Origin: Minisyncoccota bacterium
GTDB taxonomy: Bacteria > Patescibacteriota > Minisyncoccia > UBA6257 > GWB1-50-10
DNA length: 64,000 bases
Assembly: GCA_035573955.1 (NCBI GenBank)
Contig: DATLZO010000019.1
Location: 161-64,160, forward strand
Reading direction: 5' to 3'
This document shows, piece by piece, positions 11,158-33,611 of this stretch. Positions within the stretch are counted from its first letter, which is position 1. Every line of letters starts with the position of its first letter. The position numbers were made by a program, and so were the translations under genes. A model generated the notes under the pieces. The model made no database searches. It was not told the DNA's origin and saw only the letters and a program-made list of their open reading frames with translations.

Positions 11158-14100
11158 TTAGAGCTCTTTCACGGCGTTCACAATGACTTTCGGCTCGCCG
11201 CCTTTGAACGAGAGACGGCCGTCGATCATCACCGCTTTGTTCTCTTGCCAAATGTCTGGATTCTTCGAGAGGACGTCGGAGAAGACCAACACTTCGGTTG
11301 AGCCGGAATTGTCTTCCATGTTCACAAAAAGCATTGGGTCGCCACGCTTGGTGAATATTTTATGGATGCCGGTGATAACGCCAGCAAGGATTAGGCGCGC
11401 GGAGCCGTTTGCAATGTTCTCCGGCTTCGCTCCTGCGATGCGCTTTAAAGGCACCGTCTGCTTCTTCAGTTTCGGTGCATAGATATTAAAAGGGTGGTCG
11501 GTGATGTAGAGACCCAGAAGTTCTTTTTCCCAAATGAGCATCATCTTCTTATCAGTTGGCTCGCCCCCGTTCGCGAACTTGGCGGTCATGAGCTCCAGAC
11601 CGGCGTTACCGAAAAGTGAATCCTGACTCGAGGCCGACATTTTCTTGGCGGCCTGGTTGAAACGGACTATTTCCTCAATGTTCCCGAGCGCTTTTGCCCT
11701 GTCGACGCCCAGAGAATCTAGAGCTCCGCATTTAATGAGTGCTTCGAGTGACTTCTTATTCAGGTCGCGGTGCTGGATGCGGGATAGAAATTCGCTGAAG
11801 TTACGGAAGGGACCGCCGCGGCTCCTTTCTTTTATTATCTCTTCTACGATGTTCCCGCCCAAGTTCTTAATGGCAAGAAGGCCGAAGCGGATGTTGCCGC
11901 CGTCAACGGTGAAGTCCTGTAGACTCTGATTCACATCCGGCGGTAGGACTTTGATCTTAAGGCGCTTGGCTTCGTTGATGAGGAAGTTTATTCGCTCAAC
12001 ATCGTTTTCGGAGACGTTCAATAAGCTTGTCATGAACTCCACCGGGAAGTGTGCTTTCAGATAGGCGGTGCGGTAGCTTATCAAGGCATAAGCCGCGCCG
12101 TGGCTCTTGTTGAAGCCGTATCTCGCGAAAGGCGGAAATAGTTCCCAGATCTGGTGGGCCGTTTTTATGTCGATGCCGTTATTGATGAGACCGTTTAGAA
12201 GTTTTTCTTTCTGCTCATCGAGAAGTTTTTTGATCTTTTTGCCGATCGCTTTTCGCAGAGTATCAGCTTCGGCGAGCGTGAAACCGGCTAAGTCCCTCGC
12301 GATGCGCATCATCTGTTCCTGGTAGACGCCAACGCCGTAGGTCTTCTCGAGGATTGGTTCGAGGCGGGGATGAATGTAACTCACCTTCTCGCGGCCGAAC
12401 TTCCGCTTGATATAGAGTGGAATCAATTCCATGGGCCCCGGCCGGTAGAGTGAGATCATCACGATGATATCCTCGAGTTCGGTGGGTTTTAATTCCTTAA
12501 GGTAGCGACGCATGCCGGACGATTCTAACTGAAAGACTCCTGTCATCTCGGCACTCTGGAAAAGTTCGAAGGTTTTTTCATCATTCAAGGGTAGGTTATT
12601 CACGTCTATATCGATGCCGTGCAACTCTTTCACAAGGCGTAGTGTTTTTTCGATAATGGTGAGATTGCGTAGTCCGAGCAGGTCCATTTTCAGAAGACCT
12701 AAGTCCTCGATGGAGTGCATCTCGAACTGGGTGATGATGGCATCATTTCCCTGAGGTGCTCGCTGAAGCGGGACAAATTCCACTAGCGGATAGCTCGAAA
12801 TAACGATGCCGCAGGCGTGGACCGAAGCGTGCCGCACCGTTCCCTCAAGCTTCAGTGCCGCTTCGATCATCTTCTTCGCGTCTTCGTTCTTCTCCATTAT
12901 TTCCTTCAGTTCCGGAACGGTCTCAATCGCTTGCTTTAGGGGCGCGTTGAAAGGGATAAGTTTTGCGATCTGGTCGCAAAAACCGTAGGGGAGTCCGAGC
13001 GCTCGGCCGGCGTCGCGAATCGCAGCGCGGGCCATCATTGTCCCGAAAGTAATGATCTGGGCGACCTTGTCATGGCCGTATTTATCCTTGATATAAGCGA
13101 TGACTTCGTCACGGCGGGTGTCGGTGAAATCGATGTCGATATCCGGTACCTGGATGCGGTCGGGGTTCAAGAATCTCTCGAAAAGTAGGTCGTACTTCAA
13201 TGGATCAACGTCAGTGATGCCGAGAATGTAGGATACGATGCTGCCTGCAGCCGAACCACGACCGGGTCCCACCACGATGCCGTGGGATTTAGCCCAGTTC
13301 ACGAAATCCTGGACGATGAGAAAATAATTCGCGAAGCCTGTTTTCTCGATGACGCTGAGTTCGTGGTTCACTCTTTCTTTAATCTCATCCGAGGCGTCCT
13401 TGTAGCGTTCGGGCAGCTTTTCGGCAACGAGTTTATTGAGGTAACTCATCGCGTTTTCTCCCTCGGGAAGAGGGAAGGTGGGGAGATGCGTTTGATTCAG
13501 GTCTATCTCGAGGTTGCACTTGTCGGCGATGCGGCCTGTGTTTTCGATCGCCTCGGGAATATGCTTGAAGATCTCCGCCATTTCCTCGGGCGAGCGGAGG
13601 GAAACATCGAAGTTCTTGAATGAAAAGCGGTCCCGATCCTCAAGTTTGGTGTTTGTTTGGACAGCGAGGAGAATTTCATGGGCGGTTTTATCGTCTGGCA
13701 AAACGTAGTGGACGTCCTGGGTGGCAACGATGGGGATTTTGAGCTTTTCCGAGAGCGTGAGGACGAGTTTGTGGATACCAGGTTCGTGTGGCTGGATTTC
13801 AAGGTAGAAATCCTCCCCGAAGACAGACTGGTACCATTTTGCAGCTTCCTCCGCTTCGCCGAGCTTGCCGGAAGAAAGAAGGCGAGCGATCTCGCCGGAG
13901 AAGCACGCTGAAAGACAGACCAGTCCTTCGGCATGTTTCAAGAGCAGTTCCTTGTCGATGCGCGGTTTATAATAAAAGCCGTCGGTTGCGGCGATGGTGG
14001 CAAGTTTCACCAGGTTTTTCCAACCTGCCTTGTTTTTGGCCAGTAGTATGAGATGATAGCGCAGTTCGTCTATGCCCGGTCTCTTATTGAGGTGGCCGTG

Positions 14101-16207: not shown

Positions 16208-16666
16208 ATGGCCACGAGACATTTAGCGAGAACGATAGTCATCCAATCGCTTTACGAGTGGGATTTTTATAATCGTGAAACCGACCTCATTAAGATTGTG
16301 GATAGGAACATGTCGAATTTCGGCGCGGGAATAGACGAGCCAGATTTCGTTTGGCGCATGGTGAAAGGAGTGGTGGAACACTTGAAGGACATTGATGCGG
16401 TGATTGAGAAAGCAGCGCCGGAGTGGCCTATCCAGAAGATAGCCATCGTTGACCGCAACATCCTCCGTTTGGGTCTTTATGAACTACTCTACGCTGACAA
16501 GAACGAGGTGCCGCCCAAGGTCGCCATTAATGAAGCGATAGAGATTGCCAAAAACTACAGCGGCCCCAATTCGCCGAAGTTTGTGAATGGAGTTTTAGGC
16601 ACCATCTATCGGCAAATGACTACTGCCCAAGAGGATACTCCGGCTGAAGGAGAAAGGAAGAAATGA
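16208..16666 (+). CDS. nusB: transcription antitermination factor NusB
   Basis: RHLARTIVIQSLYEWDF and downstream NusB-fold helices. Confidence 0.82.
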   Translation: MATRHLARTIVIQSLYEWDFYNRETDLIKIVDRNMSNFGAGIDEPDFVWRMVKGVVEHLKDIDAVIEKAAPEWPIQKIAIVDRNILRLGLYELLYADKNEVPPKVAINEAIEIAKNYSGPNSPKFVNGVLGTIYRQMTTAQEDTPAEGERKK

Positions 16667-17367
16667 AGGAAATAATGTCGGAACTGAAGAAACTTGAGGA
16701 GAAGATCGGCGTCGATTTTAGGAACAAGGCGCTTTTGCTCGAGGCGGTCACGCACCGTTCATATCTCAACGAAAACCCAGGTGTGAGAACGGGTAACAAC
16801 GAGCGATTGGAATATCTCGGCGACGCGGTTCTCGAACTTGTTGTGACGGAGAGACTCTTCAATGAATTCCCGGAGAGTCAGGAAGGTGAACTCACTCTTA
16901 TCCGCGCCGCGCTTGTGAATTATGTTATGCTCGCGAGAGTAGCGAGAGAAATAGGTCTCGAGGGTTATATACTTCTCTCGCGCGGCGAGGCGAAGGATTT
17001 AGGTAAAGCAAGGGAGGTTATCCTTGCAAACGCTATCGAGGCGGTGATTGGTGCGATACACCTCGACAAGGGATACGAAGCTGCAAAGACCTTCATCGAG
17101 AGAAACATCATTCGTCACCTTAAGGAGGTGACGGAGAACGGCGCCTACCGTGACCCGAAGAGCAAGCTCCAGGAACTCATCCAGGAAAAAATGAAGTCCA
17201 CACCGACCTATAGTGTCTTGGAAGAAAAAGGGCCCGACCACGCCAGGGAATTTATCGTTGGTGTCTATTTCGGCGGTGAGCTCCAAGCGAAGGGTAGCGG
17301 TAGTTCCAAGCAGGAAGCGGAGAATAAGGCGGCGGAAGAGGCTCTGAAGGTGTTCGGACAGAAATGA
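16663..17367 (+). CDS. rnc: ribonuclease III
   Basis: NERLEYLGDAVLELVVTERLF signature; C-terminal dsRBD. Confidence 0.9.
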   Translation: MKEIMSELKKLEEKIGVDFRNKALLLEAVTHRSYLNENPGVRTGNNERLEYLGDAVLELVVTERLFNEFPESQEGELTLIRAALVNYVMLARVAREIGLEGYILLSRGEAKDLGKAREVILANAIEAVIGAIHLDKGYEAAKTFIERNIIRHLKEVTENGAYRDPKSKLQELIQEKMKSTPTYSVLEEKGPDHAREFIVGVYFGGELQAKGSGSSKQEAENKAAEEALKVFGQK

Positions 17368-28912: not shown

Positions 28913-29570
28913 TTAAAGTCCGACGGATTTCATCCTCGAGCGCCACTTGATAATTTCAAATTGGGCAAGAAGATGAACTTTTTTACAAGTTCAGGGTCTT
29001 CTAGTTAAAGTAATCGAGCAGAGATAAATTACTCAACAGAGTAAGTTACTCAAATTAAGGGTGGATGGTGGATGCCTAGACACCGAACGGCGAAGAAGGA
29101 CGTGGCGTAGCTGCGATAAGTCTCGGGGAGGTGCGTAGCAACCTTTGATCCGGGAATGTCCGAATGGGGAAACCTGGTAGAGCAAACCTCTATCACTTCA
29201 ACGCAAGTTGAAGAGCGTACCCAGGGAACTGAAACATCTAAGTACCTGGAGGAGCAAAGAACAATAGTTTATTCCGCAAGTAGCGGCGAGCGAAAACGGA
29301 AGAGCCTAAACTGAGCTTTCGACGCAAGTCGGACGCTCAGGGTTGAAAGAGTGAGAACGTCTTTCGAGCTTGAAAGCTTTGAGCTTGAAAGGAGAAGTTA
29401 CAAATCCATTGGTTAGTTGAATCCGCTGGAAAGCGGAGCCATAGTGCGTGATAGCCGCGTAAACGAAAACCAGTGGACTTCTCAGTTTTTATTTCTTAAG
29501 TACCGCGAGGCCAACTAACCTTGTGGGAATCCGGGAGTACTGTCTCCTAAGGCTAAATACGTTCGGCGAT

Positions 29571-29607
<37 letters not shown>

Positions 29608-29672
29608 CAGCCCGGTTAGGGCGGTGAAATAGTACCTGAAACCATCCACTTACAAGGAACAGGAGCTTTATC

Positions 29673-29836
29673 GCTATCGCTCAAAGTTCCTAAATTCTAA
29701 GCACGAAATCCAAAATTCTAAATAAATTCTAAACTCCAATGTTCAAGATTCAAAACGTTTTGAACATTTGGATTTTAGTGATTGGAGTTTGTTTAGGATT
29801 TAGAAATTAGAAATTAGGATTTGGAAACTTCGAGCG
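29673..29836 (+). other. AT-rich hairpin insertion (IVS-like) at the 23S helix-25 site
   Basis: ~160 nt imperfect palindrome of TTCTAAA/TTTAGAA-type repeats between GGAGC and the conserved GAGTGACTGTGTGCC. Confidence 0.6.
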
Positions 29837-30526
29837 GTAGCGAGGAGTGACTGTGTGCCTATTGAAGAATGAGCCAACGAGTTTACGTACGCTGCAAAGT
29901 CTAAGCCCCCTCGGGGGTGGAGGCGCAGCGAAAGCGAGTCTTAATAGGGCGAATTTAATCAGTAACACAAGCCTTTTAAGAGGATTGTGTTACCGGTTAA
30001 TAAGCAACGTGCGTAAGACCCGAAACCAGACGAGCTTGCCCTGGCCAGGATGAACTCCCGCGAAAGCGGGAGGGAGGTCCGCACCGGTGAGTCGTGCAAC
30101 GCTCTCGGATGAGCTGGGGTAAGGAGTGAAAAGCTAATCGAGTTTGGTAATAGCTGGTTCTCTCCGAAATAGTTTTCGGACTAGCCTCATATGTTTCCTT
30201 TTGGAGGTAGAGCACTGGAAGATGCGAACAGGGCGCAAGCTCGTCGCATCTATCAAACTCCGAATGCCAAAGGGTAAAAGTATGGGAGTCAGACTGTGGG
30301 GGCTAAGCTCCATGGTCGCGAGGGGAAGAGCCCAGATCGCCGTCTAAGGTCCCAAAGTTCGTACTAAGTGTCAAAGGTAGTTCGTGTCCACAAACAGATA
30401 GGAGGTTGGCTTAGAGGTAGCCATCCTTTAAAGAGTGTGTAACAACTCACTATTCGAGGACGCGGGCGCCAAAAATTTACCGGGGCTCAAGTACGACACC
30501 GAAGACGCGGGCCGTTGCGGAGCAAC

Positions 30527-30645
30527 GGAAATCCTAAATCCAAAATCCTAATTTCTAAACAAATCCCAAATCTCAAAATCCAAAACTTTTTTGAGTTTGG
30601 AATATTTGAATTTGTTTAGGATTTAGAGATTAGAATTTAGAGTTT
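30527..30645 (+). other. AT-rich hairpin insertion (IVS-like) at the 23S helix-45 site, homologous to the helix-25 insertion
   Basis: flanked by GGAAA/TTTCC; shares TTTGTTTAGGATTTAGA(A/G)ATTAGAA with the 29673-29836 insertion. Confidence 0.6.
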
Positions 30646-32048
30646 CCGTCGCTTCGCGACGGCGGTAGGAGAGCATTCCTTGTGCTGCGAAGTCCGATCC
30701 GTGAGGGCGGATGGAGCGCAAGGAAGAGAGAATGTTGGCATGAGTAATCAGCAAAGCGCGTGAAAAACGCGCTCCCCGCAAATCCAAGGTTTCCTCCGCA
30801 ACGCAAATCGACGGAGGGTTAGGCGGCCCTAAGGCGATGGCGAAAGCCGCAGCCGAAGGAGTGCCGGTTAATATTCCGGCCCACCATGCATTTTCGATGG
30901 GGTGACGGAACGCAGTAAGTTCGGTGCCTTAATGGTTTGGCATCCTTGACCGAGAGTGAATTCCAGGGAAATCCGGAATTCTGTCTTCAATGACGAACTT
31001 CAGGGTAGAGGCGAGGCGAGGTTTTTACCTTGCCAAGCGGACCGAGCGCGTTTCCTAGAAAAACCTCTAAGGTTAAAGTGCATAGTTCCGTACCGTAAAC
31101 CGCCACTGGTGGATGAGGCGAGTAGCCTAAGGGGAACGAGTGATTTCTCGCTAAGGAACTCGGCAAAAAAGCTAGGCGTAACTTCGGGATAAGCCTTGCC
31201 TGCCGCAAGGCAGGCCGCAGCTAAAGTTTCTCTGGCGACTGTTTACCAAAAACACAGCTCCCTGCGAACTCGCAAGAGGATGTATAGGGGGTGACACCTG
31301 ACCGATGCGAGAAGGTTAACGGCGGGGACGTTGCGCAGCAATGTGCAAGGTTCACTGCCCGAAGCCCTCGTCAATGTCAGCGGTAACTATAACCGTTCTA
31401 AGGTAGCGCAATTCCTTTCCGGGTAAGTTCCGGAGCGCACGAAAGGTGTAACGACTGGAGAACTGTCTCAGCGAGAAGCTCGATGAAAATGCGATACCCG
31501 TGAAGACGCGGGTTACCGGCAGCAAGACGAAAAGACCCCGGAAGCTTTACTGCAGTTTGGTATTGTTATTAACGTTTGGATGCGTAGCGTAGTGGTGAGC
31601 CTTCGAAGCCGGGATTTCGGTTCCGGTGGAGGCGACAATGAAACAGCCATCTTTCAAGTGTTAATATCTAACCTCTAGGGCCAAAAACCTAGAGGGACAG
31701 TGCCTGACGGGCAGTTTAAATGGGGCATTTTCCTCCTAAAAAGTAACGGAGGAGTCTATTAAGGTCAGCTTGGCGCGGATGGAAATCGCGCCGGACGTGC
31801 AAAGGCATAAGCTGGCTTGACTGCAAGGCTGACAAGCCGCGCAGGCGCGAAAGCGGAGCTTAGCGACCCGACCATTCTTTATAGAAAGATGGGAGACAAC
31901 GGCTAAAAGTTACTCCGGGGATAACAGGCTAGTCTGGTCCGAGAGTCCCTATCGACGACCAGGTTCGGCACCTCGATGTCGGCTCATCACATCCCGGGGC
32001 TGGAGAAGGTCCCAAGGGTTTGGCTGTTCGCCAATTAAAGTGATACGT

Positions 32049-32089
<41 letters not shown>

Positions 32090-32127
32090 TGTTGTCGGCG
32101 TTAATGCTTGAGGGAAGTCGTCCCTAG

Positions 32128-32892
32128 TAAACGACAAATTGCTACTTCACGAAGTAATTCGTGATGACAAAGCGGCTAATAACGGTGGAATCTTAATATT
32201 TGATTATCACCATCGGTCTTGGTGATAATTTACTTGAGGACCAAGAGATGTTAAGATAATACCGTGGGAAGTCGGTCTAACATTCACTATGCGTACATTG
32301 CGGGTTTCCTCGATGGTGACGGAAGCCTCATGTTGCAGGTGAAGAAACGCAAAGAAGGGAAATTGAAACGGCGTTTCATGTTCACGATTTGTTTTTATTA
32401 AGACAGTCGTCATGAACGTCCGCTTTTCTGGATTCGTAGAGTGCTCGGCATTGGTTATATTTCCCGTCGGAATGACGGTATAACCGAGCTGCGCATCAAC
32501 GGTTACAAACAAGCTGCGAGAATATTAAGGGAACTACTGCCGTTTCTAAAATTCAAGAAGCGGCAGGCGGAGGCAATATACAGCGCGGCAAAGCTTTTAG
32601 CGCAAAAGGCGCGAAAAAGATTAACGCGGCAGGAATTGCAGCGGCTTGTGAACTGGATCCTTGTAGTTCAAAAAGAAAACTACGTTACCAGAAAAAAGAA
32701 AACGAAAGCTGATTTCTTGAAGATGTTAGATTTGACCCCGTAACGACTTGTTCCGGATGGCAAGTCCGGACGGAGTTGGAAAATGCGAAGCTATCATTTT
32801 TCAGCTAATACGCCGCCTCCAAGCCCCGGTTTTGAGAAAACTGGAGCTGGATGAAGATATAGTCTACGCACGTAGTGATACGTGGTTACGTG
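32128..32892 (+). mobile_element. group I intron in 23S domain VI, splitting CCUAGU^ACGAGAGGACC at the sarcin-ricin loop
   Basis: exon sequences rejoin to the conserved SRL; intron ends in G; GATATAGTC P7-like core; contains the LAGLIDADG ORF. Confidence 0.7.
32264..32743 (+). pseudogene. intron-encoded single-motif LAGLIDADG homing endonuclease (I-CreI-like) with an in-frame TAA at 32399-32401
   Basis: YIAGFLDGDGS motif; GIGYI...LPFLKFKKRQAEA aligns to I-CreI; the stop falls where I-CreI has Gln (CAA to TAA). Confidence 0.65.
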
Positions 32893-32971
32893 ACGAGAGG
32901 ACCGGGATGAACGAACCTCTGGTCTACGAGCTCTACCACCAGGTGGAATGCTCGGTAGCTATGTTCGGACG

Positions 32972-33005
<34 letters not shown>

Positions 33006-33049
33006 CTCCCAAGATTAGGCGGAGCGTCCTCTGTACAAATTCCGCGATT

Positions 33050-33290
33050 ATTGGCCAGAAAGATTTTTTATATCTGGCTAGGCGCGAGGAGTGATGTGTA
33101 GTCGAAGACTACATGAGCGACGAGCAACAACGCCAGAAGAAAAAAGATTCTGGCCCGTAGGGAAGCTCAAAATTAAGCGATCTCTGCGTTGCTCCTCCTC
33201 AATGTGGTTTTCGACCACACTTTCGTCGTCGCATCTTGAGCTCATCATAATTTTGAGCTTCCAATACATCGTGGCATTTGTGCAGAGGGC
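33050..33290 (+). other. ~230-nt expansion insertion near the 23S 3' end (helix ~98 region)
   Basis: between CATCTAAGCGCGAAGCCTCTCCCAAGATTAGG and GTGGAAGACTACCACGTTGATAGGCC, where E. coli has ~50 nt; several local hairpins. Confidence 0.45.
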
Positions 33291-33459
33291 GCCGGATTCG
33301 TGGAAGACTACCACGTTGATAGGCCATAGGTGTAAGCGCGGCAACGCGTTTAGCCGAGTGGTACTAATAAATCCGAATTCTCGATATCTTTAGCTTGAGG
33401 ACCCCGGACTTGTCAAAAAGCTCATCTTTAGTCCACTGATCGAGCACCAAGGTTTTTGT

Positions 33460-33574
33460 TTGCTGGTGTTTCACTCGCACGTGCTCCACCTCTTCCCATT
33501 CCGAACAGAGAAGTGAAAGCGTGCGAGCCTGATGATACTGCGCTTCGCGCGTGGGACAGTAGGGTATGCCAGCA
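33460..33574 (+). rRNA. 5S rRNA
   Basis: CCATTCCGAACAGAGAAGTGAAAGCGTGC...GGGACAGTAGGGTATGCCAGCA; ~80 nt after the 23S. Confidence 0.85.
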
Positions 33575-33611
33575 TACAAAAGCCCTGGTGCTTTTTGTTT
33601 GGAGCGGTTCC

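Follow-up and report, generated by a model that had tools for sequence, protein, structure and literature searches.

What are the AT-rich blocks that interrupt the 23S rRNA gene of a bacterium of the candidate phyla radiation (CPR) at two helices, and where did they come from? The question is raised by a 64-kb stretch (64,000 nucleotides, hereafter the window) of a metagenome-assembled contig from a Candidatus Paceibacterota metagenome-assembled genome (MAG), in which extra sequence stands at helix 25 (H25) and helix 45 (H45) of the rRNA. We consider it probable that both blocks are intervening sequences (IVSs), each derived from a member of a dispersed family of palindromic elements that has replaced the tip of the helix. 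They possess each of the defining features of IVSs that can be tested on sequence and, by analogy with characterized IVSs, would be excised by RNase III.

Alignments with the Rfam model, with E. coli and with a relative (L143) agreed that extra AT-rich blocks interrupt conserved 23S sequence, as had been claimed in an original prediction made from the letters of the window. The H25 block lies within the hairpin that follows Rfam model position 583 (helix 25), and the H45 block stands in for the approximately 5-nt loop of the helix at model positions 1206 to 1226 (helix 45). In a MAFFT alignment with E. coli rrlH, the inserts follow positions 541 to 552 and 1163 to 1186, respectively, so that the assignment to the two classic IVS sites was confirmed. 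The bounds first proposed, 29673-29836 and 30527-30645, correspond to the cores of slightly larger inserts, since the comparison of filled sites with the empty sites of L143 gave wider replaced stretches (Table 1). At its base, the H25 insert is closed by the stem AUCGCUAUCGCUC / GAGCGGUAGCGAG.

Both inserts were predicted to fold into long imperfect hairpins (-72.4 kcal/mol and z -8.5 for H25; -68.9 kcal/mol and z -9.3 for H45), and none of 200 shuffled sequences was as stable in either case. Folding thus bore out the proposal that they are long imperfect palindromes of TTCTAAA/TTTAGAA-like units. Indeed, each arm consists of a run of 7-nt units, reading TYCTAAW in the 5' arm and WTTAGRA in the 3' arm, and eight of the nine matches of this heptad motif in the window fall in the two inserts (0.54 expected). 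The GC content is 31% in the H25 insert and 26% in the H45 insert, compared to 52% in the remaining 23S gene. The near-identical segment that the inserts had been said to share is the 25-mer TTTGTTTAGGATTTAGARATTAGAA, which occurs twice in 64 kb, once per insert, with 24 of 25 positions identical (chance expectation 0.00); the two inserts as such are 72.5% identical to each other. No Rfam group I or group II intron matched over either insert, and at relaxed thresholds Rfam returned over the inserts only sub-threshold models of plant miRNA precursors, that is, generic long AT-rich hairpins. The gene for RNase III that the original prediction had placed in the window is present as well (Table 1), and its gene order, nusB-rnc-smc, is kept in the relatives L135 and L139. 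Replacement of the loop of helix 25 or 45, a long stable stem-loop and sporadic occurrence among relatives, all features of RNase III-type IVSs, were thus found together.

The sporadic occurrence was observed in 23S genes of relatives, which we reached via homologues of Pcm. The gene order ddl-pcm-23S-5S-oxidoreductase-pgk is conserved among these relatives, and the nearest Pcm homologues, at 78% identity, belong to Candidatus Jorgensenbacteria. Both sites are empty in L143 (a 729-kb scaffold; 23S 79 to 86% identical to that of the window), with approximately 9 to 15 nt at H25 and 27 nt at H45, and in L144 (an 805-kb contig; 78 to 86% identical), with approximately 20 and 23 nt. The 23S gene of L143 is uninterrupted over its 2,977 nt; it has 15 nt at H25 where the window has 180, and approximately 27 nt at H45 where the window has approximately 150. 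A further lineage, represented by five independent contigs (L135, L136, L139, L140 and L142; 87 to 95% identical), carries a different element of 132 nt at each of the two sites, and its alignment with the window breaks exactly at H25 and H45. The two inserts of this L135 lineage are 97% identical to each other, cannot be aligned with those of the window and have cores built of CACGAAT/ATTCGTG units. Since the sites are empty in L143 and L144 and hold a different element in the L135 lineage, they are sporadically occupied, and their occupant was exchanged after the lineages split. The original prediction had named relatives as a check, and on the sequences compared this pattern is the distribution expected of IVSs. 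Two short contigs of the L135 lineage (L137 and L141) stop at the H25 insert or 34 nt into it, which indicates that near-identical repeats within one rRNA gene break metagenome assemblies.

Table 1. Features of the 23S rRNA gene and of RNase III in the window, with the basis of each call
Feature	Coordinates	Strand	Basis and remarks
23S rRNA gene	29048-33388	+	Rfam LSU_rRNA_bacteria on the whole window (29048-32115), plus local search of the remainder
H25 intervening sequence (probable)	29667-29846	+	180 nt between GGAGC and GUGAC; Rfam and E. coli alignments; filled versus empty site
H25 insert core	29692-29822	+	nhmmer; full-length family member, subtype with CTAAGCACGAAATCC in left arm
H45 intervening sequence (probable)	30511-30663	+	approximately 150 nt; Rfam alignment, filled versus empty site, fold
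H45 left GC-rich foot, CCGUUGC-GGA-GCAACGG	30512-30528	+	perfect 7-bp self-hairpin; sequence reading, self-pairing counts
H45 insert core	30529-30645	+	nhmmer; full-length family member, symmetric subtype
H45 right GC-rich foot, CCGUCGC-UUC-GCGACGG	30646-30662	+	perfect 7-bp self-hairpin
rnc (ribonuclease III, HXF44282.1)	16663-17367	+	TIGR02191, 242.6 bits (cut-off 166.25)

In reviews, IVSs are described as sequences of 100 to 200 nt that RNase III cuts out and that usually occupy helix 9, H25 or H45, and their origin is described as unclear. Like the classical IVSs of Salmonella, Yersinia, Proteus/Providencia, Helicobacter, Campylobacter, Leptospira and Coxiella, the window inserts sit at helix tips, where an AT-richer stem-loop of 100 to 200 nt replaces the native tip; they are likewise sporadic among relatives, and rnc is present. 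In contrast to the IVSs of Coxiella and Leptospira, they contain no open reading frame (ORF), and we infer their excision. They also differ from classical IVSs in having arms of 7-nt repeats and in belonging to a family that is dispersed outside rRNA and across phyla, a dispersal that we did not find reported for classical IVSs in the literature consulted on them. Short non-intron insertions at 23IS2 and 23IS4 of CPR 23S genes were judged to be probable IVSs by Tsurumaki et al. (2024; PMC11270868), and the window inserts agree with these in host group, sites and size class (<200 bp, no ORF, not intron-like). Since CPR insertions at these sites are thus already on record as probable IVSs, the bare finding of the window inserts is of a known kind. 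However, the main text of that paper contains neither the word palindrome nor the word hairpin, and in it we found nothing on a common sequence family, on copies beyond rRNA or on transfer from one helix to another.

The dispersed family was detected with a 21-mer, TTTAGGATTTAGARATTAGAA, taken from the segment common to both inserts and scanned against the GTDB species-representative genomes, after which 8-kb loci were inspected. The 21-mer matched at least 119 stretches of these genomes, whereas approximately 0.5 matches were expected by chance (our own estimate, assuming equal base frequencies). Among the matches listed, to which the following counts refer, only the insert parts of the window 23S gene aligned, and none of the loci holds a 23S gene. 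Approximately 70 matches are full-length copies of 100 to 140 nt that are 70 to 87% identical to the window inserts, and each of them folds as a hairpin. Moreover, a profile hidden Markov model built from 45 copies in other genomes, with the window excluded, recovered both inserts over model positions 1 to 128 in an nhmmer search: the H25 insert with 88.2 bits (E 2.4e-26, the plus strand scoring 20 bits above the minus strand) and the H45 insert with 79.8 bits (E 9.7e-24). This profile search found no further copy in the 64-kb window.

The relation of the two inserts to each other could thus be compared with their relation to outside copies. Among the matches listed, 43 copies are closer to the H25 insert than the H45 insert is, the closest (81%) being in MAGs labelled Nitrospirota and Chloroflexi, and 51 copies are closer to the H45 insert than the H25 insert is. 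The best match of the H45 insert among them, at 87%, is an intergenic copy in another Patescibacteria MAG (L028:1286-1409). Within the family at large, no block is better conserved than the 25-mer that the two inserts share. From the similarity of the inserts, the original prediction had concluded that they have a common origin or underwent gene conversion. In that form, this step was not supported: the inserts are 72.5% identical and more than 40 outside copies are closer to each, so that shared membership of a family explains their likeness better than gene conversion does. To judge from these comparisons, the window inserts are most simply taken as two members of a dispersed family that arrived separately.

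The element has a core of approximately 125 nt and is as a whole an imperfect, non-coding palindrome with terminal inverted repeats, a feature of miniature inverted-repeat transposable elements (MITEs). Many copies are polar, with CTAAGCACGAAATCC in one arm opposite AGAAATTAGAATTTAG in the other, and where both neighbouring genes run the same way, this polarity matches their direction in 37 of 51 cases (p 0.002). In all copies of the family, TAA (5' arm) or TAG (3' arm) recurs every 7 nt, for instance at 29692-29822 of the window, so that, as read from the sequence, each arm has stop codons in all three frames and on both strands. An overlap of 8 to 12 nt with the upstream gene's stop codon is seen in some copies (L033, L093 and L005). 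Hairpins of like design but different units were also seen in other 23S genes, with CTTAGTA/TACTAAG in L121 (H25 region), CTAATNN at three helices of L123 and CACGAAT at H25 and H45 of L135, which suggests a wider superfamily of heptad palindromes, several of them with a TTAG/CTAA core. No Rfam family covers the element at its gathering score in 18 loci. A literature search by the element's sequence string returned only unrelated papers on eukaryotic cell and developmental biology, and keyword searches gave nothing specific on such a CPR repeat family or on links between IVSs and MITEs. We thus found no earlier description of the family in Rfam or in the searchable literature, which is not proof of novelty.

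Outside rRNA, the copies are mostly intergenic: 147 of 161 overlap no ORF of at least 100 amino acids by more than 30 nt. Often a copy leaves no more than 15 nt of spacer to the gene on either side, and copies are also found between divergent and between convergent genes. The flanking genes are housekeeping genes (SecY, S13, S11, S4, RRF, DnaX, MreB, ScpA, FtsK and RNase J). The S13-S11 spacer holds a copy in two different CPR MAGs (L067:592-695 and L088:6366-6468), and by eye these two are not especially alike. In other genomes, several copies may occur in one 8-kb locus and on several contigs of one MAG, while the window has only its two, both in rRNA. CPR MAGs account for 40 of the 77 full-length copies in named genomes; the remaining ones come from MAGs labelled Chloroflexota, Nitrospirota, Omnitrophota, Planctomycetota, Calditrichia, WOR-3, Syntrophia, Fibrobacteria, Bacteroidota and Proteobacteria. 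The family is present in CPR and in at least 12 other lineages, and some of the non-CPR contigs that carry it are 260 to 710 kb long. A full-length copy (11399-11534, 84.5 bits) was also found on the phage contig L130 (IMG/VR 3300032020_000997), just upstream of the portal gene; this contig has capsid and adaptor genes and, at 11906-12227, partial copies of the element. Phages are thus a possible vehicle of the element between hosts.

Copies inside other rRNA genes were collected in a metagenome scan for the right arm of the family 20 to 50 nt upstream of GGTAGGRGAGC, the conserved sequence after helix 45. The scan returned nine loci, all of them 23S genes 65 to 75% identical to that of the window. 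They represent approximately seven distinct 23S sequences, since L122 and L125 have the same insert set and L123 and L128 the same hits. In these nine loci, the family occupies six helix tips: E. coli positions ~145-171 and ~272, H25, H45, helix 52 (H52, ~1354) and helix 63 (H63, ~1723). It is found in 16S rRNA as well. The stretch L070:1-713 (MAG 'bacterium AUK056') is the 5' part of a 16S gene in which positions 1 to 477 of the Rfam small-subunit model are spread over 713 nt. A full copy with GC-rich feet lies at 518-626, in the region of E. coli 64-243 and probably in helix 6, and the contig ends within a second copy (15-80), in the V3 region.

Copying within one gene was also apparent. The H25 and H52 units of L122, each of 178 nt, are identical at 177 positions and have sharp boundaries, unrelated flanks and no direct repeat; on this likeness, one unit is taken to have been copied recently onto a second helix tip. 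L123 has a subfamily of its own at three helices, with members that are 83 to 87% identical. Intragenic copying thus occurs in this system, since both the H25/H52 pair of L122 and the H25/H45 pair of L135 (97%) are nearly identical. Copies in rRNA commonly sit between GC-rich basal modules, most often with CCTTGTGC-NNN-GCACAAGG as the left module and CCTCGCGC-GGA-GCGCGAGG as the right one, and the inserts of the L135 lineage have the same foot design as the H45 insert of the window. Folded on themselves, the feet give 241 Watson-Crick pairs, 5 G.U pairs and 3 mismatches; paired left versus right, they give 214 Watson-Crick pairs, 45 G.U pairs and 37 mismatches, approximately 10 of which are a register artefact in one copy. 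Either fold of the feet is possible, and self-folded feet would stay as capping hairpins once the central stem was cut. L122 and L125, whose 23S genes are near-identical, differ in the copy at E. coli ~272, where the right arm in L122 has a GC-rich mini-palindrome, CGCCTGCCTGCGCAGGCAGGG, in place of AGAA. Small GC-rich hairpins may, from this one difference, be mobile modules in their own right.

A signal at the RNA level was observed in the rRNA copies. In each of 19 rRNA copies, not all of them independent, folding is more favourable on the sense than on the antisense strand, by a mean of 10.5 kcal/mol (Wilcoxon p 4e-6), whereas among 41 intergenic copies the sense strand is better in 17 and the antisense strand in 24. 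For the H25 insert, the sense strand has 11 G.U pairs at the -72.4 kcal/mol given above and the antisense strand has 1 G.U pair at -55.0 kcal/mol. Since a G.U pair is tolerated in RNA and appears as an A.C mismatch on the other strand, the stems are kept as RNA in the rRNA but not detectably so in the intergenic context. This bias fits an insert that folds cleanly out of the pre-rRNA, whether it is then cut out or kept.

Taken together, these data are consistent with the following course of events. A family member, that is, a core of approximately 125 nt with TYCTAAW/WTTAGRA arms that in rRNA usually lies between GC-rich basal modules, would replace a helix tip. In the pre-23S transcript, each insert would fold into a stem of approximately 55 to 70 bp projecting from the ribosome surface, and RNase III, by analogy with known IVSs, would cut both stems. 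The mature 23S rRNA would then consist of pieces of approximately 0.6, 0.7 and 2 kb held together by the ribosome, as in Salmonella, Coxiella and other bacteria, and the GC-rich feet of H45 would stay as small capping hairpins on the new ends.

Several points weigh against this reading. Excision and fragmentation of the 23S rRNA are argued from analogy. No target-site duplication, terminal signature or associated transposase was found in L122, at the rRNA sites, around the intergenic copies or in the 8-kb loci, so that it is the distribution of the element, rather than a mechanism, that speaks for mobility. Within the window and 20 kb of its closest relatives, the element is found only in 23S, and recombination of rRNA segments, not transposition, may have brought it there. 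Such recombination in the conserved rRNA flanks is possible because the whole native hairpin is replaced at H25 and H45, and it could account for transfer between species; it cannot explain copying between different helices. The taxon labels of MAG contigs can be wrong, and two archaeal labels, on contigs of 1.8 and 3.7 kb, are not to be trusted. Moreover, no covariation between the arms was detected beyond the level that column conservation yields, since a hand-specified hairpin paired in 82.6% of cells compared to 83.3% in shuffles, and RNAalifold gave no consensus structure for 53 copies. Because most copies were found via an exact 21-mer in the right arm, this alignment is biased, and with paired cells no better than in column shuffles, covariation neither supports nor excludes a role as RNA.

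The inserts could instead be retained expansion segments, that is, long surface hairpins of a mature, unfragmented 23S rRNA that RNase III leaves uncut. Ribosomes tolerate unprocessed IVSs (according to a review citing Gregory et al. 1996), maintenance of the stem on the sense strand is equally expected of a retained helix, the present data hold no cleavage signal, and the perfect GC-rich feet could act as structural clamps. We nevertheless regard retention as unlikely. A near-perfect duplex of more than 50 bp is a good substrate for RNase III, whose gene is present, and every experimentally studied insert of this size at H25 or H45 was excised according to the reviews; removal of CPR rRNA insertions from transcripts has been reported as well (PMC11270868, referring to Brown et al. 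2015). In addition, the fast turnover of core sequence between close relatives argues against a structural role in the ribosome. An artefact of assembly, or a 23S pseudogene, would be a trivial explanation: the contig is metagenome assembled, and the repeats do break assemblies, as in L137 and L141. We give this very little credence, as the junctions are clean, fall at helix tips and are bordered on each side by conserved 23S sequence, the gene reaches 2159 bits and has a 5S gene downstream, five independent contigs of a relative have inserts at the same two sites, and family members occupy these and other helix tips in assemblies made independently in several projects.

A further reading, to which the gene conversion of the original prediction belongs, is that one window insert was copied from the other within the gene, through a duplication or through gene conversion involving H25 and H45. 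It draws on the 24 of 25 identities in the shared segment and on the L135 and L122 pairs, in which such copying is apparent, and it still appears quite improbable for the window. Besides being 72.5% identical, its inserts rank 44th and 52nd of 107 in each other's lists of closest copies, among the matches listed. They are also of different subtypes, H25 having a CTAAGCACGAAATCC arm and a GAGCGGTAGCGAGG-type base and H45 having symmetric arms and CCGYYGC feet, and the segment that they share is the block most conserved in the family at large. The family might also be a module useful to the host, for example a processing or insulating hairpin for RNase III that parts cistrons and rRNA segments and offers stops in every frame. 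Copies within highly expressed operons, the agreement of polarity with flanking genes in 37 of 51 cases, conservation of sequence across phyla and the stops that TAA/TAG at every seventh nucleotide would place in all three frames of each arm speak in its favour. We consider it improbable, given that intergenic copies have no sense-strand advantage (17 versus 24) and no arm-to-arm covariation, that copies lie between divergent and convergent genes too, that the sites are filled in some close relatives and empty in others and have changed occupant, and that a selfish element better accounts for the presence in phage DNA and for the copying within one gene.

Beyond the probable identity of the inserts as IVSs derived from this family, we put forward a broader proposal tentatively, with slightly more doubt than confidence: that composite palindromic elements, probably carried by phages and with heptad arms that hold stops in every frame, with or without GC-rich feet, form a cross-phylum family that spreads in spacers and has repeatedly colonised helix tips of 16S and 23S rRNA without target duplication. 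If this is true, bacterial rRNA IVSs, the origin of which has been open since 1990, would for the first time have a source population that can be traced, and the elements of the family may also be markers of genes exchanged by CPR bacteria with the rest of their communities. The idea that IVSs are remnants of transposition lacked a source element; here, one family could be followed between genes, in phage DNA, in 16S and at six 23S helix tips, with three signs of recent movement: empty sites in relatives, an occupant replaced in a sister lineage and a near-identical copy at a second helix. The origin of IVSs thereby becomes testable by genome census, transcript end-mapping and RNase III assays.

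Comparable elements are known from other systems. The Correia elements of Neisseria are MITE-like palindromic repeats whose transcripts are cut by RNase III. MITE-like repeats resemble the heptad family in occurring in many copies in operon spacers, where they are co-transcribed. They are restricted to a genus or a family, and MITEs have target-site duplications, whereas the heptad family crosses phyla, has no duplication and colonises rRNA. A length of 100 to 180 nt, the lack of an ORF, inverted-repeat arms and a long hairpin are likewise common to both (Correia, RUP, ERIC/IRU and REP/REPIN; abstracts of PMC3184786 and PMC2759123). The target-site duplication of MITEs was not found: the L122 unit has no direct repeat, the rRNA sites show replacement of a hairpin, and beside the intergenic copies neither TA nor any other repeat recurs consistently. 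The GC-rich feet of the rRNA copies resemble an inverted REP pair around a long spacer. REP/REPIN sequences are GC-rich palindromes of 20 to 40 nt that occur as inverted pairs, are tied to a RAYT transposase and are lineage specific; in the heptad family, many intergenic copies have no feet, and the family is not lineage specific. Selfish palindromic repeats of organelles have entered rRNA-coding regions too. As in the heptad family, short hairpin repeats spread through intergenic DNA in the yeast mitochondrial GC clusters and in the mitochondrial and plastid palindromes of Volvox (PMC2670323); genomes and sequences differ, and the comparison is one of analogy only.

Other candidate identities for the element were tried and rejected. 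Integron attC sites have R''/R' core sites (RYYYAAC ... GTTRRRY) at the palindrome ends and follow cassette ORFs in arrays, whereas the element has AAAC/GTTT in mid-arm, which does not match GTTRRRY, and an apparent array in L088 proved to be the SecY-S13-S11-S4 ribosomal operon. The TA target duplication of a mariner-type MITE was ruled out by inconsistent flanks among the intergenic copies and by its absence at rRNA sites. A search of the 8-kb loci for an autonomous parent element, starting from half-elements that flank a gene, led only to an ordinary gene for a secreted protein.

The repeats have practical consequences: they break rRNA assemblies, inflate the lengths of CPR rRNA genes and made Rfam end the present 23S gene 1.3 kb early. 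In the whole-window search, Rfam placed a bacterial large-subunit rRNA from 29048 (2159 bits), a 5S rRNA downstream at 33461-33575, four tRNAs and the RNase P RNA, and it found no 16S gene in the 64 kb. When the stretch 32050-33388 was searched alone, positions 2603 to 2925 of the large-subunit model aligned to it, and E. coli 2657-2782 and 2815-2887 correspond to window 32893-33018 and 33299-33371, respectively. The true end of the 23S gene is thus at approximately 33388 and not at 32115.

Further insertions were seen in this gene. One of 764 nt (32130-32893) splits the sarcin-ricin loop (…CCCUAGUA / CGAGAGGACC…), for which L143 provides a precise empty site. It has two adjacent ORFs, 32264-32401 (YIAGFLDGDGS) and 32441-32743, which look like a frameshifted LAGLIDADG endonuclease, and a sub-threshold match to a group I intron at 32705-32885 (24.4 bits); by these features the insertion is intron-like. 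Another, strongly structured and of approximately 270 nt, lies at helix 98 (33019-33298; -142 kcal/mol, z -10.7). L135 and L143 lack this insert; in L144, an insert at a different 23S position (L144:10869-11138, E. coli ~1582-1598) matches it over 270 nt with 77% identity. Judged by this match, it seems to be a second kind of insert that moves between rRNA helices. Finally, two smaller extra hairpins lie at 29359-29396 and 29955-30003, in domains I and II of the 23S rRNA (E. coli ~272 and ~651). They are not members of the family; at E. coli ~272, four other 23S genes carry the heptad element.

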